In this document: piece by piece, positions 3,899 through 31,356 of the stretch
Numbering within the stretch: the stretch's first letter is position 1
Layout of the letters: each line of letters opens with the position of its first letter
Virus record (IMG/VR): IMGVR_UViG_3300011400_000003
Span: 1-60,337 of that record
Strand: one strand, 5' to 3'
Source of the DNA: a virus
Lineage: Duplodnaviria; Caudoviricetes
Length of the DNA: 60,337 bases
Translations under genes and position numbers: made by a program
The notes under the pieces: generated by a model
The model's database searches: none
The model's input: only the letters and a program-made list of their open reading frames with translations
Told to the model about the DNA's origin: nothing

Positions 3899-3922
3899 TT
3901 ATATGGGATGTTTGGCGAGCGG
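3899..3922 (-). promoter_or_regulatory. Phage-specific promoter, divergent copy
   Basis: CCGCTCGCCAAACATCCCATATAA keeps the CGC / ACA / TATAA spacing of the 14 other copies. Confidence 0.55.
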
Positions 3923-3931
3923 AATGATACC

Positions 3932-4447
3932 CTATTTAACAATTTCGAAGATTGACCCATATGGAAAGAGTTCGACGCCTGAGTATGTAGATGTCCAAAT
4001 ATCCTCAAACAGTAAACCCTCTTTCATCCCTGCTTCTACAATACTAGAATAACAATCACCAGTCACAATATTGACACATGCCAGGTTTTGATAATGCACT
4101 GGTATTCTTGCTCTTAACTGATGTGTGTATTTCCATGCAAACCATCTAGGGCGCCAAATAAGATTATAGGCTGCCACATTAGAAAAATCCCCATCTAATA
4201 TCACAACGTGATCGCATAATAAATTAGGAGATTCAACAAAGTACTCAGCAACTAAACGAGCAACACTACGAGTATGTCTTCCACCATCCCATGGAGATTT
4301 CAAAGCGACCTTCAAGTGTCCGAACGTGTTAAAGCTCAGACTCATGATCATGTCTCTAGATGTGTTATAGATTCTACCAACGTTACTCACATGATATGTT
4401 GGAAATTCTCGTATTACTTCCCATTCCTCTTGAATTGTATCAAGCAC
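3932..4447 (-). CDS. NUMOD4 / degenerate HNH protein
   Basis: EEWEVIREFPTYHVSNVGRI (NUMOD4), RLVAEYF, DGDFSN...NL; catalytic His apparently lost; GTG start with GGAGG. Confidence 0.75.
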   Translation of the reverse strand: MLDTIQEEWEVIREFPTYHVSNVGRIYNTSRDMIMSLSFNTFGHLKVALKSPWDGGRHTRSVARLVAEYFVESPNLLCDHVVILDGDFSNVAAYNLIWRPRWFAWKYTHQLRARIPVHYQNLACVNIVTGDCYSSIVEAGMKEGLLFEDIWTSTYSGVELFPYGSIFEIVK

Positions 4448-4718
4448 GGCGCCTCCAGAACTGCCACCATCGTTTACGAACGAGTGCCAGAGACCAACCA
4501 TTAGCTGTACATTTGTCGCAAGGTAAGAATATACCTTGGTTCAAATCCAATACTGCTCCATTGTCCCCACATACAGTACACGGAACATTGTGTGATGCAC
4601 CTAAACCAAAATCAACAATAATCTGTGTTGCGAACGGTTGGGGTTCTGACAATCGGTCTTGGACCACACGATATCGAGAAACTTGCTGATAATTTGTAGC
4701 ATAACTTCTATTGGTCAT
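4440..4718 (-). CDS. Hypothetical Zn-ribbon protein
   Basis: CxxC...CxxC; AAAGGGA RBS. Confidence 0.6.
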   Translation of the reverse strand: MTNRSYATNYQQVSRYRVVQDRLSEPQPFATQIIVDFGLGASHNVPCTVCGDNGAVLDLNQGIFLPCDKCTANGWSLALVRKRWWQFWRRRA

Positions 4719-4979
4719 TATGTCCCTTTCACGTCAGTTTCAAAAATGTGGACAAATATTTCATTTTCTTTGAGAAAAGACTTTGTAGAAATTTACTAGA
4801 TACTCCCATTCTTACATCCATAAAGGGGGTATTATGTTAAAATATATATAGTCTTTTTTCTTTAAAACTGTGTAAAAAACGCCCCACGTCCGAATAATCC
4901 TTATTAACCTAGTAATGCCCACTATTCATGCCCCAATTTGTCCGTTTCACGTCAGTTCTCCAATTGTCTAAAATGTGCG
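4719..4979. other. Candidate replication origin (non-coding, AT-rich, direct repeats)
   Basis: TTTCACGTCAGTT at 4727-4739 and 4945-4957; AT-rich core ~4835-4867; adjacent to helicase. Confidence 0.45.
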
Positions 4980-6179
4980 TCATATTTGAACAAATTCGTC
5001 AGATTTCTCAGGAATTAGATACTCTCTAATAAATTTACGCTCGTTAAAATTCTTCTTATGGTCTAGTGACCACTTGATTCCACGGTCCATTTCAGAATTG
5101 CTCACAAATATGTAATAATAAAGACTAGCGTAAAAGGTATTTAACCTATCAATACGCCCTTGGCATTGTATAAAGTTCTTATAGGAATAAGTCAGACTGT
5201 ATAAAACCATAGAATCAGTGCTAGTACAGTTCCATCCTTCAGCTCCAGCAGTGTACTGAACTAAGAAAATCCAGCTGTCATGGCCGTCCGATTCGGGTAA
5301 TTCGTCGTGTCTGTGCCCATTCCACTCGAATACATCTATCTCTTTACTTAGCGTCCGAAGGATCTCCAACTCATAATCAAACGTGTAAAACACGATCAAT
5401 CGTGGATGGAAAGCCATAAGGAATCTAAGCGCCTCCAGACGAGAAGGGTCAGAGTTAACAACTCTTCGCATAACTCGATACATTTCAGCAGCATCAATAA
5501 TTGGTCTTTGTTCATATACGTGCCACCGATCTTTAGTAACTTTTTTCACTAATTTTTCATTATAGCTAACTGGTATTTCGTTAAGAAAGCGCTCTGCTTT
5601 ACTAACATATGGCATCTCTACCAGGATGTCGTTCCTGAGAACTTCGAGTTTTCTTTCGTTAATGTATCCACGAATTTTTGGATATTTGACAAAGGGTTCG
5701 TAGATAACGTGACGTTGTTTAAATTGAGAGGCGTTCTTGTAGAAACCATTAGCAATGAAAACAGGGGCATAATCGAGCCAGGTATCGCCAGGGGTCGCAC
5801 TAAGTAATACCCAGTGGTTCTTAGCAGCAATTTTGAGAAACGATCGAACCCAGGATCCTCGTCCGACAAGTCTTTGCTCATCAAATATGAAGAAAGCATC
5901 TTTTACTCCCTCGTACTTCCATAAATTGTTCCAACTATTAACTTCTAGAAGTCCATGGTTTGTATCGGGGAAACCAATTCCAAACTTAGCAGCTTCGACT
6001 TCCCAGTCTAATGAATCACGTTTCTTGGCTGTAGTTATCACATAAATGTGCCGGGGGGATTCTTTTTCAATGTAGTACTGAAGCACCGTTGCAGACTTAC
6101 CCGCTCCTACACCGCCCCACAAAATCTTACCGTTACCGAGATGTTCCACTGCCTCCAACTGGTGCTCCATCAATTCCAT
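4980..6179 (-). CDS. SF2 DNA helicase
   Basis: GVGAGKS Walker A, variant DEQR box, LSATP, AGAEGWN, QCQGRIDR. Confidence 0.88.
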   Translation of the reverse strand: MELMEHQLEAVEHLGNGKILWGGVGAGKSATVLQYYIEKESPRHIYVITTAKKRDSLDWEVEAAKFGIGFPDTNHGLLEVNSWNNLWKYEGVKDAFFIFDEQRLVGRGSWVRSFLKIAAKNHWVLLSATPGDTWLDYAPVFIANGFYKNASQFKQRHVIYEPFVKYPKIRGYINERKLEVLRNDILVEMPYVSKAERFLNEIPVSYNEKLVKKVTKDRWHVYEQRPIIDAAEMYRVMRRVVNSDPSRLEALRFLMAFHPRLIVFYTFDYELEILRTLSKEIDVFEWNGHRHDELPESDGHDSWIFLVQYTAGAEGWNCTSTDSMVLYSLTYSYKNFIQCQGRIDRLNTFYASLYYYIFVSNSEMDRGIKWSLDHKKNFNERKFIREYLIPEKSDEFVQI

Positions 6180-6305
6180 TATTCACCTCCTAATATGACC
6201 GCCATCAATAAGAGCTTCTCTCCACGCCCAGAAAACAAAACCCCAAACAATAATGACAAGAACAACAAAAACTACCCAACTAATGATTTCAATAAAAATC
6301 ATTAT

Positions 6306-6473
6306 TCACCTCGCTTTATGTGCGTGCATATTACCGCTTTTAGTTAAGGCACATTCCGTATTGCATTTCGAGCAGATGCCATAACCAGAAAAATTACCGT
6401 TTGGTGGCATGGTGACTGTGTTAGGTGGTAGTCCGCCGCCTTCGCATTTTATTCCTCTATTTGACCAACCCAT
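6306..6473 (-). CDS. Small hypothetical Cys/His protein
   Basis: MGWSNRG... with AAGGAG RBS; CxxC and HxH. Confidence 0.5.
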   Translation of the reverse strand: MGWSNRGIKCEGGGLPPNTVTMPPNGNFSGYGICSKCNTECALTKSGNMHAHKAR

Positions 6474-6484
6474 TATTATTCTCC

Positions 6485-6754
6485 TTAGAAATCGACTACC
6501 GGTCCAGCACCTTCCCAATATGCTTTGCTCGTAAGAAATTTCAGGATTGGTTTGAGTTTATCGTCATTTATTAGTAAATCATATAACTCAGCGCAAGATC
6601 TACAAATACTGGCTAAATTAAACTCTTTACGCGTCGTGCTGCAACTACAACCCTGATCCCCACGATGAACTGCTTTATTGCAAAACATACACGAATAAAA
6701 TCTAGGCATGAACAGCGTGCATTCCATTACCAAATCCAAACAAATAGAATCCAA
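6485..6754 (-). CDS. Hypothetical Cys-rich protein
   Basis: ORF track; CxxC pairs; start uncertain. Confidence 0.45.
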   Translation of the reverse strand: MDSICLDLVMECTLFMPRFYSCMFCNKAVHRGDQGCSCSTTRKEFNLASICRSCAELYDLLINDDKLKPILKFLTSKAYWEGAGPVVDF

Positions 6755-7008
6755 TATGCGAGCTTTAACACGGCCATCATTAATGCGATCGTTACAACCG
6801 TAACAGCAAGTGCGCCTAGACCTTCCATTATCTCATCCATTATGCTCTCCTATTAAGTTCATCCAACAGGTGTCGAGCAATATCAATTTCACCCATGGCT
6901 TTAATAAATAGAACGGCCTCAATGGATAGAGGAGGAGTATCTAGTTTTAGTGAAAGAAGTCTGTCTCTTTGTGTTGCTAGAGTTTCATTTATGTCAGACA
7001 ACGTTGTT

Positions 7009-7338
7009 TTATCCATCATTCACCTCGTAATCTTTATTATACTCCATACGTTCCATTTTAGGAAAACACAACAAACCCTCGATAACTGTTGGAATATATT
7101 CAGGTAAAAGTTCACCGGTGACTGCGTTAAACAAGAAACTGTTCATTTGACCACATGCCATACGATGCCAAACACACATCGATCCTTCATAAATATGGTC
7201 AGAAGTACTAGTCTTAAATCTTCCACGAATCTTAGCTTTACGAGGACACCCAGGAATCATACAAACATCAAAAGGTCTAACCCATAAAGGATTCTGTGCA
7301 TCAGTAATCATAACAATATCAAAATTAATATTCATCAA
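7009..7338 (-). CDS. Hypothetical protein
   Basis: Tightly packed minus-strand ORF. Confidence 0.55.
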   Translation of the reverse strand: MMNINFDIVMITDAQNPLWVRPFDVCMIPGCPRKAKIRGRFKTSTSDHIYEGSMCVWHRMACGQMNSFLFNAVTGELLPEYIPTVIEGLLCFPKMERMEYNKDYEVNDG

Positions 7339-7565
7339 TCCCCCTCACCCAACATTCTTTTAGTTGTAAGTCCTCTTCTAGTTGGTCTATCGTATGTGTC
7401 AATAGTAATGAGAACGGCTTTACCATCCTCAATCACAACCGCGTCTAAAATTTTAGCGTCACCAAAATCTTTAACCACAACATCAGTACCTATAGATCCT
7501 ACGAATGCCTGTTCATCGAATCGATCGTGTTGATTAGCGGGTATCTTGAACGTTAGTCGCATCAT
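7335..7565 (-). CDS. Hypothetical protein
   Basis: Packed ORF with GAGGG RBS. Confidence 0.55.
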   Translation of the reverse strand: MMRLTFKIPANQHDRFDEQAFVGSIGTDVVVKDFGDAKILDAVVIEDGKAVLITIDTYDRPTRRGLTTKRMLGEGD

Positions 7566-7872
7566 TGCCCTCGACAAACTTTAAGTATTGTTCTTCAGTT
7601 ATCTCGATTGGTTCGTGGTATCGATCTTCCTGATACCAAAATCTAGGATTTCCAAATGTGGTTGTTCGCATACTACGATTTGGAAGGCCATCAAAGGTTG
7701 GGCGTTCCATACCAAATTGAGGCCACCCCATCCAATCACGTTCTTCAGCTGGTTCGAGAATCGGTTTCCATGCCATTTGACACCGTCCTTTGATTAGTTT
7801 ATCGCAGCCCATGTAATCACAGCCTCTATATTTACCGTCGGGGCAAAATATATTTTTTACTTTAGCCATCAA
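7534..7872 (-). CDS. Hypothetical protein
   Basis: Packed ORF. Confidence 0.5.
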   Translation of the reverse strand: MMAKVKNIFCPDGKYRGCDYMGCDKLIKGRCQMAWKPILEPAEERDWMGWPQFGMERPTFDGLPNRSMRTTTFGNPRFWYQEDRYHEPIEITEEQYLKFVEGNDATNVQDTR

Positions 7873-8065
7873 TACTCTCGTATTCTACAAAGGTACAACC
7901 AGGATGTTGACAATGTCGTTTTTTAATACTAAATCTAATAACGTCACCAAGTAACCACGGCCCCCACATCGGAACATGAAACTCGCCATTGGGAGAAACT
8001 ATGCCGGTTGAAATATGAACTTCGTCACCGTTATCTCTAATTCCTATCCTCCAAGCAGCTAACAT
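7862..8065 (-). CDS. Hypothetical protein
   Basis: Packed ORF with AAGGA RBS. Confidence 0.5.
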   Translation of the reverse strand: MLAAWRIGIRDNGDEVHISTGIVSPNGEFHVPMWGPWLLGDVIRFSIKKRHCQHPGCTFVEYESIDG

Positions 8066-8073
8066 AAGTTTCC

Positions 8074-8298
8074 TTAAGGTTTAATATCATCCCAATCTTT
8101 ACCAAAAGGCCAGAACACAGCATATCCATAACCAAGCGTCGATACATGACGAAGTGCATCGATCTCTTCTTTATGTAACCCTATAGGATAAACAGAATCA
8201 TCATAGGCGAACACAAACCAAGCGCCTTCTTCTTTAGGATTATGAAGCTCTCGTAATTGATTAGGAGAAAGTATTTCTTTACCTGTTATTGCAACCAT
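8074..8298 (-). CDS. Hypothetical protein
   Basis: Packed ORF with GAGGTG RBS. Confidence 0.55.
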   Translation of the reverse strand: MVAITGKEILSPNQLRELHNPKEEGAWFVFAYDDSVYPIGLHKEEIDALRHVSTLGYGYAVFWPFGKDWDDIKP

Positions 8299-8585
8299 GC
8301 TCGCACCTCTTTAGTTCGTACGTTGTATCGCATGATCAAATCAACGCCAGTAACCTGAAGAATTTGAACTGTCTCGGGAGTGAGAACAAGCGTTCCAATA
8401 GCTTTTCCACGTAGATCAATGATGGGGTATTCAACAGGAGCCCGTACTGCTCGTCCTGTACATCCACCAACTCCACAGAGTAAAGTTGGGGGTAGTTGCT
8501 GCAGAAAAACCTCTGGGGCTTGAAAATCTCCCTGTTTGAGTGTTTTAGTTGAACCACAATTGGCGCAAGTGTACGTCATTTCCAT
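8286..8585 (-). CDS. Hypothetical Zn-ribbon protein
   Basis: CANC...CGVGGC. Confidence 0.55.
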   Translation of the reverse strand: MEMTYTCANCGSTKTLKQGDFQAPEVFLQQLPPTLLCGVGGCTGRAVRAPVEYPIIDLRGKAIGTLVLTPETVQILQVTGVDLIMRYNVRTKEVRAWLQ

Positions 8586-8794
8586 TAGTCAAACCTTTTG
8601 TCGGTAACTGCTACACCCTTACCGTCCGCATCGAATATGCCTGCACAATCCTTACACGTCTTGAGACCGGTGCTATTAGGTTCCTCGAAATTGTCTTTGG
8701 AGCAATTTGAATCATGTACATAAAACTGTCTGTTACCAGCTAAATCGTGTTCATCCATTGTAACTCCTAGGGGTGGGTGGTTGGGCATTCCCAC
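8585..8794 (-). CDS. Hypothetical protein
   Basis: Packed ORF; start may be the internal ATG (MDEHD). Confidence 0.5.
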   Translation of the reverse strand: MGMPNHPPLGVTMDEHDLAGNRQFYVHDSNCSKDNFEEPNSTGLKTCKDCAGIFDADGKGVAVTDKRFD

Positions 8795-8795
8795 A

Positions 8796-8853
8796 AAGAA
8801 AAGGATAGGCCTTGTGCCTGTTGGCAGAGGCTTCTCCTCTTTTGAACTACTTA
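8796..8853 (-). terminator. Intrinsic terminator
   Basis: AGGAGAAGCC...GGCCUAUCCU stem followed by UUUCUUU. Confidence 0.65.
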
Positions 8854-9065
8854 ATTCGTTTGATGTTGGCTTTTTTTGCGAACGTCATGGATGCTAGCGT
8901 ACGGCTAGGTAGACTGTCACATACCGTCATGTGGAATGTAACACCATCGTCTTCAGCGTCTTCAACGCGGTTAACCATGAATGCTACTTCCTCAGCGAAG
9001 GTAATTTCATCGCCTACCTCAATACTGTTTGCTGCAACCATTTCGTATTCGAAATTGGCTGTCAT
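8847..9065 (-). CDS. Cassette-encoded small protein
   Basis: AAGGAG RBS; own promoter (9091) and terminator. Confidence 0.7.
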   Translation of the reverse strand: MTANFEYEMVAANSIEVGDEITFAEEVAFMVNRVEDAEDDGVTFHMTVCDSLPSRTLASMTFAKKANIKRIK

Positions 9066-9090
9066 CAATTACTCCTTTGTAGTTGTTCCA

Positions 9091-9114
9091 TTATAAGGAG
9101 TGTAAAATATGCGA
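9091..9114 (-). promoter_or_regulatory. Phage-specific promoter
   Basis: TCGCATATTTTACACTCCTTATAA. Confidence 0.8.
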
Positions 9115-9115
9115 C

Positions 9116-9149
9116 AAAAGGAGAAGCCTTGTTAGGGCCTCTCCCTTTG
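9116..9149 (-). terminator. Intrinsic terminator
   Basis: GGGAGAGGCC-CUAACAA-GGCUUCUCCU followed by UUU, abutting the next promoter. Confidence 0.7.
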
Positions 9150-9168
9150 GATCGTTGGTCTACGTGTG

Positions 9169-9369
9169 TTAGTTCTTGTTGAACACGTTCGACGCTGTGC
9201 GCCATGCCGTTTTCGCCGTGACAACGCTGCCTACGGCGGCAAGCGCCACCATCGCAATTCCGAACAATTGGAATCGGATACTGGTCCTGCCCTCGTAGCC
9301 GGCATTGAATGCGTCACGCATGGTGAGGTTGTCTTTGCTGTTCAATTCACCGCTCCTTGTAGTGGTCAA
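9169..9369 (-). CDS. Cassette-encoded small membrane protein
   Basis: One hydrophobic segment; between promoter 9378 and terminator 9116. Confidence 0.65.
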   Translation of the reverse strand: MTTTRSGELNSKDNLTMRDAFNAGYEGRTSIRFQLFGIAMVALAAVGSVVTAKTAWRTASNVFNKN

Positions 9370-9377
9370 TTTCTCCG

Positions 9378-9401
9378 TTATAGACGCTGTAAAATATGCG
9401 A
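9378..9401 (-). promoter_or_regulatory. Phage-specific promoter
   Basis: TCGCATATTTTACAGCGTCTATAA. Confidence 0.8.
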
Positions 9402-9443
9402 AAAAAAAAGAAAAGGATAGGGCTTGTTGGGCCTTCTCCTTTT
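9402..9443 (-). terminator. Intrinsic terminator
   Basis: AAAAGGAGAAGGC...GCCCUAUCCUUUU followed by a long U tract. Confidence 0.7.
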
Positions 9444-9444
9444 A

Positions 9445-9627: not shown

Positions 9628-9649
9628 TACTCCTGTTGTAGTAGTATCA

Positions 9650-9673
9650 TTATAACACATGTAATTTATGCGA
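9650..9673 (-). promoter_or_regulatory. Phage-specific promoter
   Basis: TCGCATAAATTACATGTGTTATAA. Confidence 0.8.
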
Positions 9674-9936: not shown

Positions 9937-9967
9937 CGAATTACTCCTTGTGTAGCGAATATCTTCA

Positions 9968-9991
9968 TTATATTGTGTGTAAATTCTGCGA
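9968..9991 (-). promoter_or_regulatory. Phage-specific promoter
   Basis: TCGCAGAATTTACACACAATATAA. Confidence 0.8.
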
Positions 9992-13813: not shown

Positions 13814-14005
13814 TATTATGTTCCTTTCAATTGTGGTTAGCTAACAACGAAGGGCTGTGAGTAATCATCGAGAATAATTAAGGTGAGCGCAGGAGTAAAT
13901 CCAGCCCTTAATGAAACTCTAGAAGTATTTCAGCGTACGCCCCTCCAGTAAGTTCCTTAGGCTTACCTTCTATAACGTACATCCATACTGTCCTCACAGC
14001 ACCAG

Positions 14006-14360
14006 TGGACCTGGGGGGAATCGAACCCCCGTCCAGAACTCCTTTAACTGCTCGTTTACTGCAATAGCCACTGGAACCGTGGCCGCTCTCACGCTCCACC
14101 ACCTTCTTTTTCTGCGGAGAATAAAGAAGGAAACGCATTACTCTTTCCTTACTTAGCCGTTAGTTAATAGGGTGGACCAACCCCAGACGTGGCTACTACT
14201 ACGCAGCAACCAGTTGAGCGTCAGCGCAAAGCGCCTCGTACTCAGCGTCGATGTCACCGATGTTGGTGTCATTTAGTTTGGTTCCGTGTTTTAACGTCAC
14301 TTCGGAGATGACGTGCAGAAGAAACAATCTCCAGTAGATCTGTCGAATCCTATCAGGCCC
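14006..14360 (-). ncRNA. ssrA: tmRNA (355 nt); tag ORF 14199..14270 encodes (A)DTNIGDIDAEYEALCADAQLVAA
   Basis: 5' GGGCCUGAUAGGAUUCGAC; 3' GGGGGUUCGAUUCCCCCCAGGUCCA; G3:U70 Ala identity pair; UAAAU before the resume codon; tag ends LVAA followed by three UAG. Confidence 0.95.
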
Positions 14361-16904: not shown

Positions 16905-16974
16905 TAGGCTCCATTCAAATGGACAGAAAATAAGAAAGAGGTACCTGATAAATCAGATATTGTCCTCTCTCCTA

Positions 16975-16998
16975 TTACAAGCGTTGTATATCTTGCGA
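16975..16998 (-). promoter_or_regulatory. Phage-specific promoter followed by leader hairpin 16927..16973
   Basis: TCGCAAGATATACAACGCTTGTAA. Confidence 0.75.
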
Positions 16999-24023: not shown

Positions 24024-24713
24024 CTATCTCTCTCTAAATTTTCTATCTGATGAATGTTTAAGATCCGTTGTAGATGCCTGTTCTTCAATTTCGTTGCCAA
24101 GAACTTCTACAGAGTAATGACCCGGATCTCTAATCACTTCGTATTCAGCAAGAAGCTTAGAATTTCGAATATAAACAACGTTCGGATCTTTGGATCCGTG
24201 TCCAAACAGTAACGGACCTAGAATTACTCCAGGATTATAAATTGGTACATTGTCTTCGTCTACTAAAATATCATCTCCAGCGTAATACGTTAGATTTGAT
24301 TGACGATACTCTCGTTCATCCGTAATGAACTCATCCTGATGAAGAATGTATGGTGCTTCCTCTGTGCGTTTACTAGTTTCATCTTCCCAATTCCACACTG
24401 TTCCGTCAGAATCAGTATCAAATATGGTTCGATGTTCTGGTTCTACTGGTTCGCCAAGAGTTTGTTCAATGAATGTCTTTCCTTTTTCAATTACTTCTGA
24501 AAATTCATCTGGAATATCAGTATCGGTTTCTTCTTCAGTATCAGAAACTACAGCTAAATCGCTCATGTCCCAATCTTGTGCAGGAACTGCATGAATGAAT
24601 TTTTGTTGACGCTTACCTAGCAAATATCCGATTCCAAAACCAATACCTAATGCAATAGCTCCTACAATTGCGACAGTTGGATCCGGACGTGGTTTCAAAA
24701 TTTCATCATCCAT
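24024..24713 (-). CDS. Membrane-anchored hypothetical protein
   Basis: N-terminal TM; PYI, LTYYAGD, VYIRN..EYEV. Confidence 0.7.
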   Translation of the reverse strand: MDDEILKPRPDPTVAIVGAIALGIGFGIGYLLGKRQQKFIHAVPAQDWDMSDLAVVSDTEEETDTDIPDEFSEVIEKGKTFIEQTLGEPVEPEHRTIFDTDSDGTVWNWEDETSKRTEEAPYILHQDEFITDEREYRQSNLTYYAGDDILVDEDNVPIYNPGVILGPLLFGHGSKDPNVVYIRNSKLLAEYEVIRDPGHYSVEVLGNEIEEQASTTDLKHSSDRKFRER

Positions 24714-25615
24714 TATGCCTCATCAATCAGATTCCAGACTTCACCATCTACATTGAAGTCAAGCCAAATTGCGGGTTCCCAATTACCTACGCCTTGCTCG
24801 TTTATCCCTTCCCAAATATGGAAATCGATGTATCCATCACCAGGACCGTTCTTGACCCAACCGACAATTGCTCCAATACTACTACGCTCCATACCAAGAG
24901 AATCATATACATCATTTAACAATAGATGACCGTTGGCTTGAAGTCGTTGAGAAGCAATATTCTGTTGACACATCAAGAAATTACGGTTTATTTCTGAACT
25001 GTTTACCCAATTACGATTGTGTTCGTCAAATAACCGTGCGTACGGAGAATGCTTACTCGGATTTACAGTTTCAATAGTCTTCTTCTTACCATCAATTTCA
25101 ATAACTTGCTTCTCTGCATCCAAATATAATGCACGCTCACGTTCTTCACCAAGCTCTTCACGAACTCGAGCACGATATGCTTCGAACGCTTCCATAACAG
25201 CAGCGAGTGTTGCAGAAAGCGCAGCATTACGTTTGGTCAACTGAACATGAGAACCAGTCAAACACGCAATAGAAACACTACCGAGAATAATCGAAGGACC
25301 ATACAACTTACAAATTTTAAGTGCGCCCTTCGTATACACATACATTACATCTCTACGGTATTCTGCTTGTGTATACCGTACAGGATTTTCACTTGTCTCA
25401 GCAAGTTCACTGTAACCACCAACGTCAGTTACAGAATTGAAGTCATCTTTAATCTCGTCAACCACATCGCCTAATCTTAAAGTTGCTCGAGATGAAAGGA
25501 ATGCTGTTCCAATCACTCCAAATACTCCACCTACGAACAGAATATGCGGAGAATTCTTTTTTGTTTTCAGAATTGTTCTAGCAAGTTTGCTAGACACAGA
25601 AGTAGGTAGTTTCAT
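24713..25615 (-). CDS. DUF6353-like membrane-associated protein
   Basis: KNSPHIL-TM...LYGPSI...GHLLLNDVYDSLG...GW...LDFNVDG. Confidence 0.75.
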   Translation of the reverse strand: MKLPTSVSSKLARTILKTKKNSPHILFVGGVFGVIGTAFLSSRATLRLGDVVDEIKDDFNSVTDVGGYSELAETSENPVRYTQAEYRRDVMYVYTKGALKICKLYGPSIILGSVSIACLTGSHVQLTKRNAALSATLAAVMEAFEAYRARVREELGEERERALYLDAEKQVIEIDGKKKTIETVNPSKHSPYARLFDEHNRNWVNSSEINRNFLMCQQNIASQRLQANGHLLLNDVYDSLGMERSSIGAIVGWVKNGPGDGYIDFHIWEGINEQGVGNWEPAIWLDFNVDGEVWNLIDEA

Positions 25616-25829: not shown

Positions 25830-26089
25830 TACGGACCTTTCGTCGATTTAGGTTGAGGAAGAACTAACATGAATCCACTAGGAGGAACTTCTCTGATTTC
25901 AACATCTTTAAGTTCTGTCCATCCTACGTGTTCGTCTGTATGTACGGATGGTACTCCAACTAGACTCTTTAGATCGCCAAGAGTTACACACGAAAATTGA
26001 TCTATGATATCGCTCATGGCATCAAAAACTTTTACCGCTTCGTCTTTGGTTGCAAAAATATAATCAAACATTAGCAACCTTCCTTTCAT
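25829..26089 (-). CDS. Paralog of the C-terminal domain of 26086..26745
   Basis: ATKDEA...VTLGDL..LVG.P..HTDE..GW...LPQP. Confidence 0.7.
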   Translation of the reverse strand: MKGRLLMFDYIFATKDEAVKVFDAMSDIIDQFSCVTLGDLKSLVGVPSVHTDEHVGWTELKDVEIREVPPSGFMLVLPQPKSTKGP

Positions 26090-26745
26090 CCTCGCAGTGG
26101 TTGTGGTTGTGGTAGATCTAGCAAATATCCTTCACGAATCTGTTGAACCTGAGCACTTCGGATATCGTCCCAACCCCAAGCTTCATCTACGTGCGTCGCA
26201 GGAAGTCCAACCATGTTGTACAAGTCGCCCACGGTTACAGTCCCATACTGCTCGATGATGTTGCCCATCTGTTCGATGGTGCTATCTGCTTCATCCTTGG
26301 TCGCAAGAACCAAACCAGTATTCAGAGAATGCCTACTGGAATATCGTGGTCCAGTACCGAGTTGCTGTGGCGTTAGTCCTCGTCTATCGAGGTTGTCACC
26401 TCTACCAACTACAGAGCTGTATCCACGTTGCACAGGACTTTGGTATGAAATATGCGACGCCCTATACCCACGTTGCACCGCACGCTCACCAAACAACATA
26501 CGATCCACGCCTCTAGACGCACCATCAGCAAGCATATTCTTGAGCGCAGGAATCATCACGTCATAGAACACGTAGTTGGTCACGTTTCTAAAATCGGCAG
26601 CAACAAACATGTCCTTAAATCGTTGCCCAAGAGACTTCTTCTGAATGAGAACTTCTCCAGTTGTAACTCGTTCTACTTTCTTTTCTACCTTCTCACTTTC
26701 CTTTTTTGCTTTGTCTTTGTTAGAATTACTATAATTGTTAGGCAT
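26086..26745 (-). CDS. Conserved hypothetical protein
   Basis: ATKDEA...YGTVTVGDLYNMVGL...GW...LDLPQP. Confidence 0.75.
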   Translation of the reverse strand: MPNNYSNSNKDKAKKESEKVEKKVERVTTGEVLIQKKSLGQRFKDMFVAADFRNVTNYVFYDVMIPALKNMLADGASRGVDRMLFGERAVQRGYRASHISYQSPVQRGYSSVVGRGDNLDRRGLTPQQLGTGPRYSSRHSLNTGLVLATKDEADSTIEQMGNIIEQYGTVTVGDLYNMVGLPATHVDEAWGWDDIRSAQVQQIREGYLLDLPQPQPLRG

Positions 26746-26753
26746 TAGACTCC

Positions 26754-27197
26754 TTAATTATTTGTAGATGATGTCGGAGGCGCCTTAGGCTTATCCTGAT
26801 CTTGTAATTTCTTATTGAACTCGTCGATGTCCTTGGGCATAATTCCCTCAACAAATTTCGCTGCTGCTTCAGCATCTGTCATAAACTCAGTCATAATAGA
26901 TTCAAAAGCTAAACTTTGTACAAACTTCTCACGAAGTTCGTCCGATTTTTCAAATCTTTTTCCATCAGGAGATTTTACACCATAGGACATAAGAAGAACT
27001 TCTTTAATCTTTTTGAAAATTTCCTTTTCGTTTGACTCATCGATGATTCTTTGAAGGAACTTACCAAGCCCTCCTTCAATATCAACTTGCATTTCAAGAA
27101 GTTCTACCTTGGACAGATGAAACCAGCAAATATCAACTACTTCTTCATCATCCCAATTTTTATACTTGACATCAAGCTTCAACATCAGGCGCCTCAT
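26754..27197 (-). CDS. Conserved protein, possibly tail-assembly-chaperone-like
   Basis: SYGVKSPDGKRFEKS...FVQS...F..GIMP; start probably MLKLD. Confidence 0.6.
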   Translation of the reverse strand: MRRLMLKLDVKYKNWDDEEVVDICWFHLSKVELLEMQVDIEGGLGKFLQRIIDESNEKEIFKKIKEVLLMSYGVKSPDGKRFEKSDELREKFVQSLAFESIMTEFMTDAEAAAKFVEGIMPKDIDEFNKKLQDQDKPKAPPTSSTNN

Positions 27198-27348
27198 TTA
27201 AATTAGCGTATCTACGAGCAACAATAAATTTGTCGTAACCATCATCCACAAGCCGTGTGGCTACTGCAGTAATAATTAAAAGAATTGCTCCTTTCGCAAC
27301 ATCATCGAAAGCAGCTAGCATCTTTCGTCTAGCTTCCAATCTATTCAT
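27172..27348 (-). CDS. Small membrane protein (58 aa)
   Basis: MNRLEARRK...ILLIITAVA; AAGGAG RBS directly after the promoter. Confidence 0.6.
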   Translation of the reverse strand: MNRLEARRKMLAAFDDVAKGAILLIITAVATRLVDDGYDKFIVARRYANLNEAPDVEA

Positions 27349-27374
27349 AAAATATCTCCTTGTAGGGTCTTCCG

Positions 27375-27398
27375 TTATACGGCTTGTATAATTTGCGA
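27375..27398 (-). promoter_or_regulatory. Phage-specific promoter heading the replication operon
   Basis: TCGCAAATTATACAAGCCGTATAA. Confidence 0.8.
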
Positions 27399-28160
27399 TT
27401 ACAATATCTTCCTATCACTGGCACGAAGATGCTTATAGTCAAATGCCAAGCAAGGTTCACCCTCTGGCGACATTGTTGTAGAAAATTCCAACTCAAGTAA
27501 CTTGTCAGTATCCCAACCTAGATTGTCTGACTCAGATGTGTGATCCAAATTAAGAAGATCATAGAAGTCTGACATTGTTACCCAATAAGTATTCACAACC
27601 ATTTGGTTGATGTCGTTCTCTGCCTTGCGCAGACTTTCCATGTCACTCTTGAAATATCTTCCTGTCCACAACTCACAGCACAGAACCTCTCCTTTACCAA
27701 GCATCAGTATCTGAGAGTTTGGAGGATTATCCGTAATCTTCTTCTGTGCTAACTCGTCACGAATCTTTTGTTCTTTTCCCTTACCGAATTGTTCTATTAC
27801 GTGATCCTTGTACTCTGAGAATGCACGTTCGGTAATGGAATATGCGGCTACTGCAGCAGATGTGCGTCGTCCGGATGCTCTTTGAGATCCGATAATGCAT
27901 GCAATCGTAGCTGCGCCTGAAATCACAGGTGGAATATATAACACCCATGTTTCTTGCACTGATCTTATAAAATACTCTCTACGATTTCTGAACGGTTGCT
28001 CCTTTTTTAATTCCTCCAGTGGTTGGACCGCTTTGAACGACGCTTTCGCCGTTAAATATGATGTCGTTACTACACCCGCAACACCAAGACCTGTGAAAAT
28101 TTCAGGAGAGTTTCTTTTAAGTGTTTTTAATGACCTATTAAAAATATCTGATGCGGTCAA
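27399..28160 (-). CDS. DUF6353-like membrane-associated protein
   Basis: RNSPEIFTGLG...YIPP...GRYFKS...VTMSDFYDLL...GW; start uncertain. Confidence 0.75.
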   Translation of the reverse strand: MTASDIFNRSLKTLKRNSPEIFTGLGVAGVVTTSYLTAKASFKAVQPLEELKKEQPFRNRREYFIRSVQETWVLYIPPVISGAATIACIIGSQRASGRRTSAAVAAYSITERAFSEYKDHVIEQFGKGKEQKIRDELAQKKITDNPPNSQILMLGKGEVLCCELWTGRYFKSDMESLRKAENDINQMVVNTYWVTMSDFYDLLNLDHTSESDNLGWDTDKLLELEFSTTMSPEGEPCLAFDYKHLRASDRKIL

Positions 28161-28285
28161 CGGTTCCTCATTTCTCGGACAAATATCCAAATTAGCCAAA
28201 GTCCTCCAGTGATAACTGTCATGAAACAGTCACCAATGAACTTGAAGAATCCGTACTTTTTCTTACAACAATACGCTGGATACAT
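28157..28285 (-). CDS. Small membrane protein (42 aa)
   Basis: MYPAYCCKKKYGFFKFIGD...TGGLWLIWIFVREMRNR. Confidence 0.65.
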   Translation of the reverse strand: MYPAYCCKKKYGFFKFIGDCFMTVITGGLWLIWIFVREMRNR

Positions 28286-28506
28286 CATCCCTCCTCAAAT
28301 ATAAGTCCTACTTTTTCAAGGGCATCTACCGCTAGCTCTGCAACAACTTTAGAAGTATCAAACACTGTAAGATCTTCTGGTAGTTGTTTTTCAAAGGCCA
28401 AAGCTTGTCTTACAAACTCTTCACCAGATTCCTCTGGGTCTAGAGCAACCACCAGTTGAACCGCCATTGCTTCCATTATGGCTTCAAGAGCCACTGAGCG
28501 TTTCAC
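28285..28506 (-). CDS. Hypothetical protein (73 aa)
   Basis: GTG start after AAAGGAG; the longer ORF-track version runs through RNA units. Confidence 0.65.
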   Translation of the reverse strand: MKRSVALEAIMEAMAVQLVVALDPEESGEEFVRQALAFEKQLPEDLTVFDTSKVVAELAVDALEKVGLIFEEG

Positions 28507-28532
28507 GATTCTCCTTTGCAATTTGTAAATAT

Positions 28533-28614
28533 AAAAAAGAGGACTGGTTGAACCGCTAAGGTGTTTACATATTAGCAATTTCGTAAACTGTCTTAGTCGG
28601 ACAAGTGTCCTTTC
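28533..28614 (-). ncRNA. Promoter-driven hairpin RNA or attenuator leader (~82 nt)
   Basis: Starts at G right after TGTAAT; AGGAC/GUCCU closing stem followed by U6. Confidence 0.5.
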
Positions 28615-28615
28615 A

Positions 28616-28639
28616 TTACAAGCCATGTAAATTCGGCGA
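28616..28639 (-). promoter_or_regulatory. Phage-specific promoter
   Basis: TCGCCGAATTTACATGGCTTGTAA. Confidence 0.75.
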
Positions 28640-28640
28640 G

Positions 28641-28758
28641 AAAAAAATGAGAAGCAGGGGTTACTGGCCCAACGCAAACCAGTCGTTAAGTCCTTTTTCA
28701 GGGACCACCGAGTAGGTATGAGTTTTCTCCCATACACCTGCGTGTCTTACTCCTTCTC
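28641..28758 (-). ncRNA. ORF-less small RNA (~118 nt)
   Basis: Between two promoters; GAGAAG/CUUCUC closing stem followed by U7. Confidence 0.6.
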
Positions 28759-28759
28759 G

Positions 28760-28783
28760 TTATAGACCATGTATAAATTGCGA
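28760..28783 (-). promoter_or_regulatory. Phage-specific promoter
   Basis: TCGCAATTTATACATGGTCTATAA. Confidence 0.8.
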
Positions 28784-28790
28784 AAAATAT

Positions 28791-28843
28791 AAAAGAGGCC
28801 TGTCCCCGAGTTCGGGGTGGTACTGGTAATTTACAGACCTCTC
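28791..28843 (-). ncRNA. ORF-less small RNA (~53 nt)
   Basis: Between two promoters; GAGAGGUCUGU/ACAGGCCUCUU stem, inner CCCCG/CGGGG hairpin, U tract. Confidence 0.6.
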
Positions 28844-28844
28844 G

Positions 28845-28868
28845 TTACAAGAGTTGTATTTCTAGCGA
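28845..28868 (-). promoter_or_regulatory. Phage-specific promoter
   Basis: TCGCTAGAAATACAACTCTTGTAA. Confidence 0.75.
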
Positions 28869-28914
28869 AAAACCTAAGCTTTGTGTAAGCCTAGGTCTTG
28901 AGGCCCTTGGGTTA

Positions 28915-29088
28915 TTATTTCTCCAGTGAGTCAAACCATTTCTTTGCAAGATAGGTTGCCCCAAAAATCAGGATCCACTTGAGCAGCATGAAGCTGCCGA
29001 ATTGCTTCAGCGCTTTGATGCCAAGTTTCCTGTTCAGGGCCGACGCTTCTTCGTCAGACATGTTTCGAATATCTTCAATGGTGTACAT
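28915..29088 (-). CDS. Cassette-encoded small membrane protein (57 aa)
   Basis: MYTIEDIRNMS...LLKWILIFGA; AAAGGA RBS; terminator 28868..28898. Confidence 0.65.
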   Translation of the reverse strand: MYTIEDIRNMSDEEASALNRKLGIKALKQFGSFMLLKWILIFGATYLAKKWFDSLEK

Positions 29089-29109
29089 AATATTCCTTTC
29101 GTGGCCTCA

Positions 29110-29133
29110 TTATGAAAGGTGTAAAATATGCGA
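29110..29133 (-). promoter_or_regulatory. Phage-specific promoter
   Basis: TCGCATATTTTACACCTTTCATAA. Confidence 0.8.
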
Positions 29134-29176
29134 AAAAAGTGTCGAGGAAAGGCCCTGTTTGGCCCCTCCTCTTTGG

Positions 29177-29401
29177 TCACGCTGCCGTTGGCTTCTTCGT
29201 GAAAGTTTGGGTATCGCCGTTCTTTAGTCGCACGATGATGGCTTGTGCACCTTCGTCGTTGTGCCAGTGCCCCACCTTGTCGATCCTGTATCCACGTGCT
29301 TGATGCACGGCGAATAGGGCGCCAAGGGCGGCAAAGCCCACGATTGCGGTGTCGCAACCATCCTTGTGGTTCTGATAGAAACGCTTGATCCGCTCTTTCA
29401 T
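29177..29401 (-). CDS. Cassette-encoded membrane-anchored protein
   Basis: Start MKERIK after AAAGGA; one TM segment. Confidence 0.65.
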   Translation of the reverse strand: MKERIKRFYQNHKDGCDTAIVGFAALGALFAVHQARGYRIDKVGHWHNDEGAQAIIVRLKNGDTQTFTKKPTAA

Positions 29402-29429
29402 TTCAATTTCCTTTCGGTCGTTGTGTCCA

Positions 29430-29453
29430 TTATATGCCATGTAGAATATGCGA
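29430..29453 (-). promoter_or_regulatory. Phage-specific promoter
   Basis: TCGCATATTCTACATGGCATATAA. Confidence 0.8.
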
Positions 29454-29454
29454 A

Positions 29455-29646
29455 TTAAACGTGGCCTTGGCGATGGTGCTCCAAAAGTTCTTCCACAGTC
29501 CATGGAGTTGAATATTCAACAATTTCCAGAGTCACTGGGTTGTTACGTTCTTCTGGGTGTTGTTCAATAAATTTCATCAGAATTTCGTACTGATACTCGC
29601 CTTCAATTATTACGTTAACCTTCTCTGTTTTAATTCGCATTTTCAT
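29455..29646 (-). CDS. Hypothetical protein
   Basis: Start MKMRIK after AAAGGAG. Confidence 0.55.
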   Translation of the reverse strand: MKMRIKTEKVNVIIEGEYQYEILMKFIEQHPEERNNPVTLEIVEYSTPWTVEELLEHHRQGHV

Positions 29647-29675
29647 TATCCGCTCCTTTGTTAAAAATATGAGAG

Positions 29676-29758
29676 TACCGGGCACGGGATTCGAACCCGT
29701 ACGTCCTTTCGGACCGAGGATTTTAAGTCCACTGCGTCTGCCGTTTCGCCAGCCCGGC
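29676..29758 (-). tRNA. tRNA-Leu, anticodon UAA (reads TTA); CCA not encoded
   Basis: GCCGGGC/GCCCGGU acceptor stem, CUUAAAA anticodon loop (29725-29723), long variable arm GUCC-GAAA-GGAC, GGUUCGAAUCC T-arm. Confidence 0.95.
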
Positions 29759-29764
29759 TGAAAG

Positions 29765-29929
29765 CTAATCCTTACTAATTAGAACCAACAATCCGTTTCG
29801 ATACTCAACATCATCAACGGTAAAACTTTCTTCGGCCGGAAGGCCATCTTTTTGAACTTCAAATATGACGTGAGGATCATGATCCGCAACCCTCTCACCG
29901 ACTGAATTTACAATTTGTGAAAAATGCAT
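29765..29929 (-). CDS. Small hypothetical protein (54 aa)
   Basis: MHFSQIV...; AAAGGAG RBS. Confidence 0.55.
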   Translation of the reverse strand: MHFSQIVNSVGERVADHDPHVIFEVQKDGLPAEESFTVDDVEYRNGLLVLISKD

Positions 29930-29954
29930 TATGTCTCCTTTGTTCTGTCAAATA

Positions 29955-30206
29955 TCAAGTAAAAGGATCTTCGTCGCCGTCCAAAGTACGAAGCCCAGTT
30001 ATAAGTAAACCTCGTGCTCTATGAGGAGGCATAACACCACCCGAAAAAAGTATGGGATATCCATATGTTCCATCTTCGTCCGTGTTTGTTACGCATCCTA
30101 CAAACACCCACTCGATAAGCATGTCACTTTTCTCAACTTCTTCAAAAACTCCAAGAGCTTGTGTTGCAGCTTGTTCGATAAGACTGGAAGCTTCGTTACT
30201 ATCCAT
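29955..30206 (-). CDS. Hypothetical protein
   Basis: EWVFVG...PPHRARGLL. Confidence 0.65.
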   Translation of the reverse strand: MDSNEASSLIEQAATQALGVFEEVEKSDMLIEWVFVGCVTNTDEDGTYGYPILFSGGVMPPHRARGLLITGLRTLDGDEDPFT

Positions 30207-30357
30207 CAGATTCTTCCAGTTCTGCCATCAAGGCGTCATACTCATCTTGAAGCTGATCTGACTTTGCGAAATATGTGGCAGTTAATCTCGCCCGCCTTTT
30301 GAAGTAGTCGTCAAATCTTTCTTCTAGAGTTTTCTCTTTAGGCTTAGTTTGTGGCAT
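30199..30357 (-). CDS. Small hypothetical protein (52 aa)
   Basis: MPQTKPKEKTLEERF...; AAAGG RBS. Confidence 0.55.
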   Translation of the reverse strand: MPQTKPKEKTLEERFDDYFKRRARLTATYFAKSDQLQDEYDALMAELEESDG

Positions 30358-30432
30358 TTTGAACCTTTCGAGAAAAAGAATATGGGATGAAGGACGATTA
30401 ACGTCCGGCTGCGAAAATATCGCGACCTCCCG

Positions 30433-30456
30433 TTACAAGGCTTGTAAATTCTGCGA
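30433..30456 (-). promoter_or_regulatory. Phage-specific promoter followed by leader hairpin 30373..30431
   Basis: TCGCAGAATTTACAAGCCTTGTAA. Confidence 0.8.
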
Positions 30457-30496
30457 AAAGTGTCAGGGAAAAGCCTTGTGGCTAATCCCCTTAGGA

Positions 30497-30667
30497 TCAC
30501 CTCCCGTTTCGTTCTCGCCTCCTGACTTCTTTCTTCCAAGTCTTCGAGTTCCTTCGTGCGGTGTTGGCACGGACGAGGCCCGTCATAGCGCTAACTACGA
30601 GAGCCAAAACCGTAGCAACTCCAAGAGGGTTCTCTTCGAATTGGGCTTTCAGCTTGTCAAGGTTCAC
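30497..30667 (-). CDS. Cassette-encoded small membrane protein (56 aa)
   Basis: MNLDKLK...ENPLGVATVLALVV...basic tail; AAAGGA RBS. Confidence 0.65.
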   Translation of the reverse strand: MNLDKLKAQFEENPLGVATVLALVVSAMTGLVRANTARRNSKTWKKEVRRRERNGR

Positions 30668-30695
30668 GAGTGTCCTTTCGGCTAGGTTATTCCCA

Positions 30696-30719
30696 TTATA
30701 CTGGCTGTAAAATATGCGA
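30696..30719 (-). promoter_or_regulatory. Phage-specific promoter
   Basis: TCGCATATTTTACAGCCAGTATAA. Confidence 0.8.
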
Positions 30720-30936
30720 TTTTTGATTAGACCCTCGTATTTTGCCTTCTAAGCGATTTTTGACGTTCGCCGGCACTGAGTACCGGACACCTTTCTAAAT
30801 ATGTCTCAGAATGTACGCTGACGCGTACCAATTTTGGAAAGTTCCTCAAAAATGGCCCCCCGGGGATTTTCCAGGGCAAAAAAGAAGAATCCTTGTACAG
30901 AATGTCCTTAAATGTCCCTTTCCCATCGCGACGGCG

Positions 30937-30989
30937 AAAACACAGAAGCCATGTAGGATCTTTTCAGGGATCCCACAGGCTTCCTGTGC
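30937..30989 (-). terminator. Intrinsic terminator
   Basis: CACAGGAAGCC-UGUGGGAUC...GAUCCUACA-UGGCUUCUGUG followed by UUUU. Confidence 0.65.
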
Positions 30990-31012
30990 TTAGCAACAGT
31001 CTGGTTCTGTGC

Positions 31013-31309
31013 TCATGGTACTTTCGGTCGTAGTTTGAGTTGGTAGCCTTTAGATGTCATCACGTGCTTCTGTTCGTATGCAACCAACAAGAACATCTCG
31101 ATGAAACTCCCAAAGACGATCAGCATCGTGTCTCGACTTACGGGCTTTCGACTTTCACTATTCTTAAGCTCGTAGAGTCGTTCCAACAATTCCATCATCT
31201 TAGGGTAGTCTGCATGATCTACTTTTATTGCTTCCATCTTCTTCAGAACAGCACTGATCTGTCCATCTAAAGGCGACGGCTTCTTAAAACTCGGAAAATG
31301 CCGTAGCAC
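31013..31309 (-). CDS. Hypothetical membrane protein
   Basis: VSRDTMLIV...YEQKHVMTSK; GTG start after AAAGGAAGG. Confidence 0.65.
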   Translation of the reverse strand: MLRHFPSFKKPSPLDGQISAVLKKMEAIKVDHADYPKMMELLERLYELKNSESRKPVSRDTMLIVFGSFIEMFLLVAYEQKHVMTSKGYQLKLRPKVP

Positions 31310-31332
31310 TGCCTTCCTTTCTGTTGTTTCCA

Positions 31333-31356
31333 TTATAGGCAATGTATAGATTGCGG
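31333..31356 (-). promoter_or_regulatory. Phage-specific promoter, first copy after the tail module
   Basis: CCGCAATCTATACATTGCCTATAA. Confidence 0.7.

Follow-up and report, generated by a model that had tools for sequence, protein, structure and literature searches.

The window analysed here is a complete virus record of 60,337 bp (IMG/VR record IMGVR_UViG_3300011400_000003; Duplodnaviria, Caudoviricetes), and its non-structural half carries 15 copies of a rigid, three-block element of about 30 bp. We consider it fairly probable that these copies are promoters read by the phage's own RNA polymerase, a 910-amino-acid single-chain protein of predicted two-barrel fold. Judged from its sequence and placement, the motif is a promoter. 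The rigid arrangement of its three blocks, its tolerance of substitutions expected to disable a −10 element, the initial purines and its travel with one phage lineage across host phyla together argue for a phage-encoded reader, and the polymerase, with its predicted built-in helix-turn-helix (HTH) modules, is the obvious candidate.

Exactly 15 matches to the pattern YCGC-N7-ACA-N6-RTAA were found in the window, all on the minus (coding) strand; dinucleotide-shuffled sequences gave 0.07 on average and never more than 1. These are the 15 copies listed in the initial annotation, recovered at the same coordinates. A stricter consensus with two mismatches allowed recovered 14 of the 15 (0.44 expected). 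When both strands were scanned with a weight matrix of 30 positions built from the 15 window sites, the sites scored 24.0–38.7 bits (12.5–36.0 in leave-one-out scoring) and nothing else on either strand of the window exceeded 8 bits. No sixteenth copy was thus found by the matrix scan, and the confinement of the motif to the non-structural half, including its earlier noted absence from 31.4–60.3 kb, is real.

Conservation extends over about 30 bp, not 24 bp as first described, although the fixed spacing proposed with that length was borne out. The block opens with a T-rich stretch (the four bases upstream of the core) and TCGCA; a spacer of five AT-rich bases leads to TACA, and a second five-base spacer, GC-rich at its centre, leads to TATAAY and GRRA. 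The bases following TAA are Y (T in 10 copies, C in 5), G (14/15), R (15/15), R (14/15) and A or G (14/15). The consensus originally proposed, YCGC(A)-N5-TACA-N5-TRTAA, holds overall, except that site 3899 has AACA and site 29110 has CATAA; two sites begin with CCGC. The hexamer reads TATAAT in seven copies, CATAAT in one, TATAAC in three, TGTAAT in two and TGTAAC in two. TGTAA is found at 16975, 28616, 28845 and 30433, and the five TAAC copies counted before are those at 9378, 27375, 28760, 28845 and 30433.

The copies are intergenic; most of them precede a Shine-Dalgarno (SD) sequence and start codon by 8–30 nt or directly precede a structured RNA, and a T-run stands just ahead of many. They are named here by the start of the originally described element, whereas the coordinates given are those of the 30-bp block, all on the minus strand. 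Read along this strand, site 31333 (31327–31356; CCGCA..TACA..TATAAT-GGAA) opens the first unit past the tail genes, with an SD and start codon within about 25 nt. It is followed by the sites 30696 (30690–30719; TATAAT-GGGA), 30433 (30427–30456; TGTAAC-GGGA, with a 5' stem from the G after TAAC), 29430 (29424–29453; TATAAT-GGAC) and 29110 (29104–29133; CATAAT-GAGG), in which the SD starts 9 nt past the hexamer. Site 27375 (27369–27398; TATAAC-GGAA) heads a 10-kb block with DUF6353 genes and the primase/polymerase gene, and at site 16975 (16969–16998; TGTAAT-AGGA) a hairpin and T-run follow immediately, with an open reading frame (ORF) at +70. Four further copies lie close together: 9968 (9962–9991; TATAAT-GAAG), 9650 (9644–9673; TATAAT-GATA), 9378 (9372–9401; TATAAC-GGAG) and 9091 (9085–9114; TATAAT-GGAA). 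The last copy, 3899 (3893–3922; CCGCT..AACA..TATAAT-GAGA), lies about 850 nt upstream of the polymerase gene and heads a nuclease–polymerase operon.

Between 28536 and 28868 on the minus strand, three consecutive copies each precede a short structured RNA that has no ORF and ends in a T-run. Site 28845 (28839–28868; TGTAAC-GAGA) precedes a hairpin RNA of about 50 nt (28792–28843), in which the closing stem starts from the first base and the minimum free energy is −24 kcal/mol, a value reached by none of 200 shuffles. Site 28760 (28754–28783; TATAAC-GAGA) precedes a multi-branched RNA of about 114 nt (28645–28758), the 5' GAGAAG of which pairs with CTTCTC just before the T-run; its folding signal is weak. 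Site 28616 (28610–28639; TGTAAT-GAAA) precedes an RNA of about 80 nt. No Rfam match to the three RNAs was obtained at E values up to 1. A 150-amino-acid ORF (28285–28737) spans a terminator and a promoter and is probably not a gene.

The motif does not have the architecture of a σ70 promoter, which agrees with the earlier reading. A −35-like hexamer at a distance of 16–18 bp occurs in only one of the 15 copies (a chance-like TTGTCG at 16 bp, site 9091), and none has TG directly before the hexamer as in extended −10 promoters. In σ70 −10 elements, positions 2 (A) and 6 (T) are nearly invariant and most depended on, and the middle positions are weaker. In the window, A−11 (position 2) is replaced by G in four copies and T−7 (position 6) by C in five, which alters 7 of the 15 sites, and positions 3–5 (T-A-A) are the same in all 15; this is the reverse of the σ70 conservation pattern. 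The two TGTAAC copies alter both A−11 and T−7 while their upstream blocks stay perfect. Scans within 1–32 kb found fewer σ70-type sites in the non-structural arm than in shuffled sequences (20 vs. 31.1, standard deviation 6.0; 22 vs. 31.9, standard deviation 5.2), and the structural end (44–60.3 kb) was at chance (35 vs. 36.3).

The structured RNAs downstream of the motif bear on the transcription start. Five such units were folded with 200 shuffles each (28845, z = −4.43; 28760, z = −1.82; 30433, z = −3.84; 16975, z = −4.71; 28616, z = −2.98), and four of them fold better than all but 0–3 of the shuffles. The closing stem, said before to begin on the first base after TAAY, does so in three of the five (28845, 28760 and 30433), whereas it begins one base earlier at 16975 and at the fourth base at 28616. 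In relatives, genes for transfer RNAs (tRNAs) or tRNA-like RNAs begin within a few nucleotides of the hexamer: at 0 nt in L104 and 3 nt in L123 (both tRNA-like, with the type left undetermined by ARAGORN), at 3 nt in Caudovirus D_HF5_2C (tRNA-like; Rfam tRNA, 28.9 bits, E = 2.5e-4), at 4 nt in L043 (tRNA-Ile), at 7 nt in Rhodococcus phage ReqiPoco6 (tRNA-Ala) and at 7 nt in Lactococcus phage P162 (tRNA-like, recognized by eye only). A start 7 nt past the hexamer would truncate four of these six genes. The RNA stems and the tRNA-like genes lying 0–4 nt after the hexamer thus favour initiation at or beside the conserved G, and are suggestive of a transcription start at or next to the G that follows TAAY. 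A tally of first-helix starts downstream of 419 family sites was left unused, since any signal is masked by base pairing between the GC-rich spacer and the SD region.

The tRNA-like genes of the relatives L012 (20054–20170), L104, L123, L043 and L010 (18667) have odd anticodon arms and abut the promoter, at 0–7 nt from the hexamer; their ends are formed by a T-run. By their layout, these loci are minimal promoter–RNA–terminator units.

A scan of IMG/VR with an exact 16-base form of the motif yielded at least 109 stretches, many with 2–8 copies on one strand, and the reversed motif used as a control yielded 21 stretches with one match each. The at least 109 stretches, each chosen for one or more exact copies, provided 575 candidate sites, of which 414 have a TATAAT-like hexamer at the exact spacing. 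After 187 sites matching the search pattern itself had been set aside, 227 non-ascertained sites remained. In these, position 2 of the hexamer is not A in 44 cases, and the hexamer is followed by G in 175 and by A in 42, i.e. by a purine in 217 of 227. The spacing is rigid throughout the family: TACA-N5-TATAAT occurs 296 times, against 2–7 occurrences at gaps of 2–4 and 6–9, and CGCA-N5-TACA 346 times, against 14–31 at other gaps.

The motif and the polymerase gene were found to occur together from either direction. The gene was sought in the first 50 of the at least 109 motif-bearing records. It is encoded in 32 of the 50, among them all 14 records with a completeness of 90% or more; it is missing from 18, all of them fragments (11–69% complete), and none of the 21 reversed-motif control records encodes it. 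At least 450 IMG/VR stretches encode a relative of the polymerase. Of the loci picked by the polymerase gene alone, 66 were kept that reach 2 kb or more upstream; they have the core motif 46 times on the coding strand vs. twice on the opposite one.

Homologues of the 910-amino-acid protein, with 35–52% identity, are present in 250 sequenced phage records; these phages infect Arthrobacter, Gordonia, Streptomyces, Rhodococcus, Microbacterium, Curtobacterium or Lactococcus, or come from human oral or gut samples. The gene lies at the right genome end in every relative examined. De novo dyad counting and pattern searches recovered the motif in relatives with genomes from 33% to 61% GC. Gordonia phage Kerry has 11 copies on the coding strand and none on the opposite one (TCGCA..TACACGTCCTATAATGAGACCCC), Arthrobacter phage Mudcat 7 and none (a TCGCG variant) and ReqiPoco6 13 and none (standard form). 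The coding-strand counts in the remaining genomes are five copies of standard form in the oral D_HF5_2C, two in Streptomyces phage Scap1 (TATAGTGAGACCCC, with TATAGT-GAGACCCC), about 12 in Lactococcus phage 1706 (variant yCACA..TTTTACA..CTATAGTAGAAAG) and 12 in P162 (variant TTTTACAyrCCCTATAATGAAAGGA, without the TCGCA block). These comparisons support the motif as a lineage hallmark that accompanies this RNA polymerase in phages of different host phyla. A megablast search of 27–32 kb of the window against sequenced phages gave no match.

A repeated motif of 43–50 bp has been described in the cluster DJ Gordonia phages Vardy and Conley and read as a σ70 −10 element (PMC9671010, PMC10868162). 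It is very probably the same element as the window motif: like the latter, it is intergenic and contains TATAAT, and cluster DJ phages encode a homologue of the polymerase. Its five copies lie in the central genome region, and the accessible parts of the two announcements do not mention a phage polymerase, the upstream blocks or conservation beyond the cluster (PMC9671010, PMC10868162). The promoter SD13 of Streptomyces phage phiSASD1 (PMC13722658), also considered, belongs to an unrelated phage and has normal −35 and −10 elements. Our literature search found no paper linking the motif to the polymerase or testing an enzyme of this family.

The polymerase gene (313–3045, minus strand) encodes, as previously noted, a protein of 910 amino acids with a DFDGD motif; the catalytic loop ADFDGD lies at residues 520–525 and is invariant in 17/17 and 8/8 aligned homologues. 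The protein matched phrog_4291 over its full length and the Pfam family RdRP (PF05183) weakly, below the cut-off (residues 512–662, E = 1.4e-3); no NCBIfam model matched it. The AlphaFold model (predicted local distance difference test score, 77.8; predicted template modelling score, 0.57) was compared with PDB structures by Foldseek, and the best matches were QDE-1 (E = 1e-8), plant RDR2 (2e-6), gp62 of P74-26 (2.9e-5), gp64 of the P23-45 type (4.3e-5) and bacterial β' (1.9e-3), all with low template modelling scores (0.25–0.40). No Pfam match to a right-hand polymerase (Pol A-like, T7-type) was obtained, and all fold matches were to two-barrel enzymes. On the DxDGD loop and the overall predicted fold, the protein can be assigned to the single-chain two-barrel RNA polymerase class. 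Its homologue in phage 1706, 39% identical to it, was listed in 2010 as one of five YonO-like families (Ruprich-Robert and Thuriaux, PMC2919709), and in 2021 the protein was described as a signature of an Actinobacteria–Firmicutes phage supercluster and as a possible polymerase, promoters being unmentioned in the accessible part of that preprint (bioRxiv 10.1101/842583).

Two HTH motifs are predicted near the N-terminus (about residues 49–70 and 89–113) and one near the C-terminus (about 880–901), and those at 89–113 and 880–901 are also weak matches to σ70 region 4. A sequence match in PDB to the 'CAP repeat' of 8vd6 reflects a repeat of a generic HTH consensus and is uninformative on function. 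Residues 1–34 (2944–3045) are predicted to be disordered, yet contain the peptide HYG..R.SGRYPWGSG (L.HYG..), which is invariant from Lactococcus to Streptomyces phages and was not found elsewhere in the window; a role as a signal for packaging or for binding a partner is conceivable. The polymerase gene is followed by a small conserved ORF (69–395, minus strand) that matches phrog_4303, a family with no function assigned, and occupies the same position in every relative examined (Scap1, Mudcat, Kerry, P162, ReqiPoco6 and 1706). The match covers residues 31–106, so the true start of the ORF is probably later. Its product is a candidate partner of the polymerase.

If the polymerase is the reader, it would bind duplex DNA through its HTH modules and read the TCGCA, TACA and TATAA blocks, about 10 bp apart, on one helix face. 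It would then melt the AT-rich TATAAY and start the RNA at the conserved G directly after it, which would make GRRA positions +1 to +4 and let the promoter extend from about −25 to +4. The 14 strong copies would drive the small early genes and the right-arm genes for replication, as well as the three short structured RNAs, and the weak AACA-type copy at 3899 would drive the nuclease–polymerase operon. The initial annotation's proposal of a cognate promoter within an orthogonal polymerase–promoter pair is supported in part; the identity of the reader, its independence of host factors and the orthogonality are presumed.

A number of observations weigh against this assignment. The motif co-occurs with a whole conserved set of lineage genes (primase-polymerase, helicase, nucleases) and not with the polymerase alone, so that a different shared factor could read TCGCA and TACA. 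Promoter variants showed no clear link with HTH residues in eight aligned homologues and the polymerase-selected loci, and in the latter a TCGTA variant stands beside TCGCA within one genome. The nearest solved folds, QDE-1 and RDR2, are RNA-dependent polymerases; the preference of the enzyme for a DNA template is therefore only presumed. Most of the tRNA-like genes used for locating the start are atypical: two have no type in ARAGORN, the Rfam score of 28.9 bits stands against a gathering threshold of 29, and the P162 gene was seen by eye. The polymerase gene itself lies at the far end of the promoter-controlled arm and is preceded by a copy of the very motif that the enzyme would read, so that the first enzyme molecules call for a separate explanation. 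The structural half has no copy of the motif, and the two-barrel polymerase YonO is a precedent for a phage enzyme that transcribes one long late operon (PMC5467207); the enzyme could thus serve the late genes instead. Read-through from a 3899-type promoter across joined genome ends is a possible source of structural transcripts.

The hexamer, too, has features that speak for the host. It is the exact σ70 −10 consensus TATAAT in 7 of the 15 copies, position 6 is T in 216 of the 227 family sites (95%), and 7 nt past the hexamer 12 of the 15 copies have a purine, which is A in 10, so a σ70-type start is possible at the consensus copies. According to the rival that survives best, host σA would recognize the −10 hexamer alone, a phage factor (a MotA-like activator or an early-gene repressor) would sit on TCGCA and TACA, and the phage polymerase would transcribe something else, for example the 29-kb structural block. 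In T4 middle promoters, which depend on MotA and AsiA, a MotA box at about −30 is combined with a σ70 −10 element and MotA stands in for the −35 contact. If TATAAT is placed at −12 to −7, TCGCA falls at −31 to −27, close to the place of the MotA box, and the terminators of the units, a hairpin and a T-run, are of a type that bacterial polymerase uses. The published −10 reading of the Gordonia motif (PMC9671010, PMC10868162) and the single late operon driven by YonO (PMC5467207), set beside a structural half devoid of the motif, point the same way.

We nevertheless judge this rival to be rather unlikely. The changes at A−11 or T−7 in 7 of the 15 copies, two of them with both bases altered next to perfect upstream blocks, and the 44 of 227 family sites without A at position 2 speak against a hexamer read alone by σA. 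The invariant middle bases and the conserved G-R-R-A are foreign to σ70, the spacing is invariant, and structured RNAs and tRNA-like genes start 0–4 nt after the hexamer. In contrast to T4 middle promoters, the window motif is conserved across host phyla. No MotA- or AsiA-like protein was detected among the 18 window proteins scanned against family libraries, a scan that left out most small ORFs. The polymerase is the only DNA-binding protein reported lineage-wide in the accessible text of the supercluster study (bioRxiv 10.1101/842583), with the window ORFs not all scanned for others.

The assignment to the phage polymerase can be extended to a self-sufficient system, in which a sigma-less enzyme delivered with the virion would use one HTH module per block, start at the edge of the TATAAT-like element and express the early and replication genes independently of the host. 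As a whole, this extension is doubtful. It depends in part on the source of the first enzyme molecules, which could be delivered by the virion or made by host polymerase from a weak site. The GenBank product name 'structural protein' for orf75 of phage 1706, the polymerase homologue, hints at virion delivery; the name was copied by similarity to ReqiPoco6 and its basis is unconfirmed.

The weak site in question is 3899, which by its sequence belongs to a separate, weaker sub-class conserved upstream of the polymerase gene, a distinction overlooked in the initial annotation. It has the lowest matrix score (24.0 bits; 12.5 in leave-one-out scoring) and has lost TCGCA and TACA, and it has a perfect TATAAT followed by G-A-G-A. 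Among 33 related loci with a match, 18 have a site 862–991 nt upstream of the polymerase gene, and these sites are usually weak: they have AACA, their upstream block is degenerate, and the hexamer is followed by AG rather than GA. A division of labour, in which host polymerase would read 3899 and produce the first phage polymerase, which would then read the 14 strong copies, would account for the retention of TATAAT without the upstream blocks and for the conserved position of the sub-class. It is nonetheless improbable, as site 3899 has neither a −35 nor a TG element, its downstream G-A-G-A fits the strong class, and the 1706 label, if it came from virion proteomics, would indicate another source of the enzyme. 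The least probable proposal, which we find very hard to sustain, is that the repeats are sites of an HTH protein for replication, packaging or genome organisation: the three HTH motifs of the 910-amino-acid protein and the restriction of the repeats to one genome arm would suit it, but all copies run in the direction of the genes, stand shortly before SD sequences and start codons or RNA genes, often after terminators, directly precede tRNA genes in relatives and have an AT-rich melting element followed by a conserved purine.

The arrangement attributed here to the phage polymerase resembles several known systems in part. T7 promoters are contiguous elements of about 25–30 bp with rigid spacing and a TATA end, followed by a GGGAGA start and often by a 5' stem-loop. 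The window motif is likewise contiguous, rigid and multi-copy, lies before non-structural genes and has a GRRA purine start, often with a 5' stem-loop. It differs in that the window polymerase does not have the right-hand fold and the motif sequence is unrelated; by analogy, the motif may work like a T7 promoter without being a member of that class.

Thermus phages P23-45 and P74-26 encode non-virion (gp64 and gp62, respectively) and virion (gp96) two-barrel polymerases, which use GC-rich and AT-rich promoters (PMC10770324). As in the window, these are single-chain enzymes whose early-gene promoter motifs were tied to them partly by co-occurrence in related phages, and the fold comparison of the window protein placed gp62 and gp64 among its best matches. 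At the sequence level, however, the window protein shows no detectable similarity to them. It exceeds them in length by about 300 residues, has HTH motifs at both ends and is paired with a putative promoter that contains TATAAT and consists, over 30 bp, of three rigidly spaced blocks. For P23-45, the assignments were made with Cappable-seq and ChIP-seq (PMC10770324), whereas the pairing proposed for the window comes from sequence. YonO of the Bacillus prophage SPbeta is similarly a single-chain enzyme; its mass is about 100 kDa, and it shares the DxDGD loop with multisubunit RNA polymerases (PMC5467207, PMC2919709). It serves one late operon from a single start, its promoter being undetermined in 2017 (PMC5467207), whereas the window has 15 consensus copies in the non-structural arm. 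The late promoters of the phiKZ non-virion RNA polymerase, T(-3)ATG(+1), show that a sigma-less two-barrel enzyme can start on a G directly after an AT-rich TAT, the geometry proposed for the window motif. That enzyme has five subunits and a 4-bp consensus without upstream blocks (PMC7598289), in contrast to the single chain and 30-bp consensus considered here.

How two-barrel single-chain phage polymerases recognize promoters is largely open, as the case of YonO in 2017 illustrates (PMC5467207). The present family offers a sharp 30-bp consensus, at least 450 metagenomic relatives and 250 sequenced phage records, most of them named for culturable hosts (Arthrobacter, Gordonia, Streptomyces, Lactococcus), and this makes promoter finding by a sigma-less two-barrel enzyme directly testable with existing phages. 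If the phage polymerase reads the motif, the published reading as a host −10 element (PMC9671010, PMC10868162) would be corrected. The question is also relevant to the crossing of host phyla by a phage lineage (bioRxiv 10.1101/842583). Independence of the host, if true, would help to explain how one lineage and one promoter span Actinobacteria and Firmicutes with a GC content far from that of the hosts. A self-sufficient system, if true, would be a compact, portable polymerase–promoter pair unrelated to T7. Phage polymerase–promoter pairs are workhorses of expression technology, and the common ones are all T7-like.

The window has a GC content of 41.5% and all its long ORFs lie on the minus strand. 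Read along this strand, the structural genes come first (60.3 to 31.4 kb), including those for the tape-measure and minor tail proteins. The non-structural arm follows, with many small ORFs, two DUF6353 genes, a 1264-amino-acid primase/polymerase, a helicase, an HNH endonuclease and an exonuclease; the polymerase gene is its second-to-last gene. The DUF6353 paralogues (24713–25615 and 27399–28199, minus strand; E = 8e-63 and 1e-72) belong to the operon headed by site 27375. A tRNA-Leu gene (anticodon TAA; 29676–29758, minus strand) lies within the early gene cluster with no promoter copy directly before it. The phage also carries a transfer-messenger RNA gene (14003–14360, minus strand; Rfam RF00023, 78.8 bits against a gathering threshold of 47, full-length model), within 150 nt upstream of which there is no motif copy; the tag peptide given by ARAGORN is DTNIGDIDAEYEALCADAQLVAA. 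Runs of G and C occur at both ends of the record (1–60 and 60300–60337), GGGGGGAGGGGGGG and CCCCCCC near bases 1–50 and CCGGGGGG near the other end, and may be remnants of genome termini; the annotation of ReqiPoco6 gives a 3' cos overhang.

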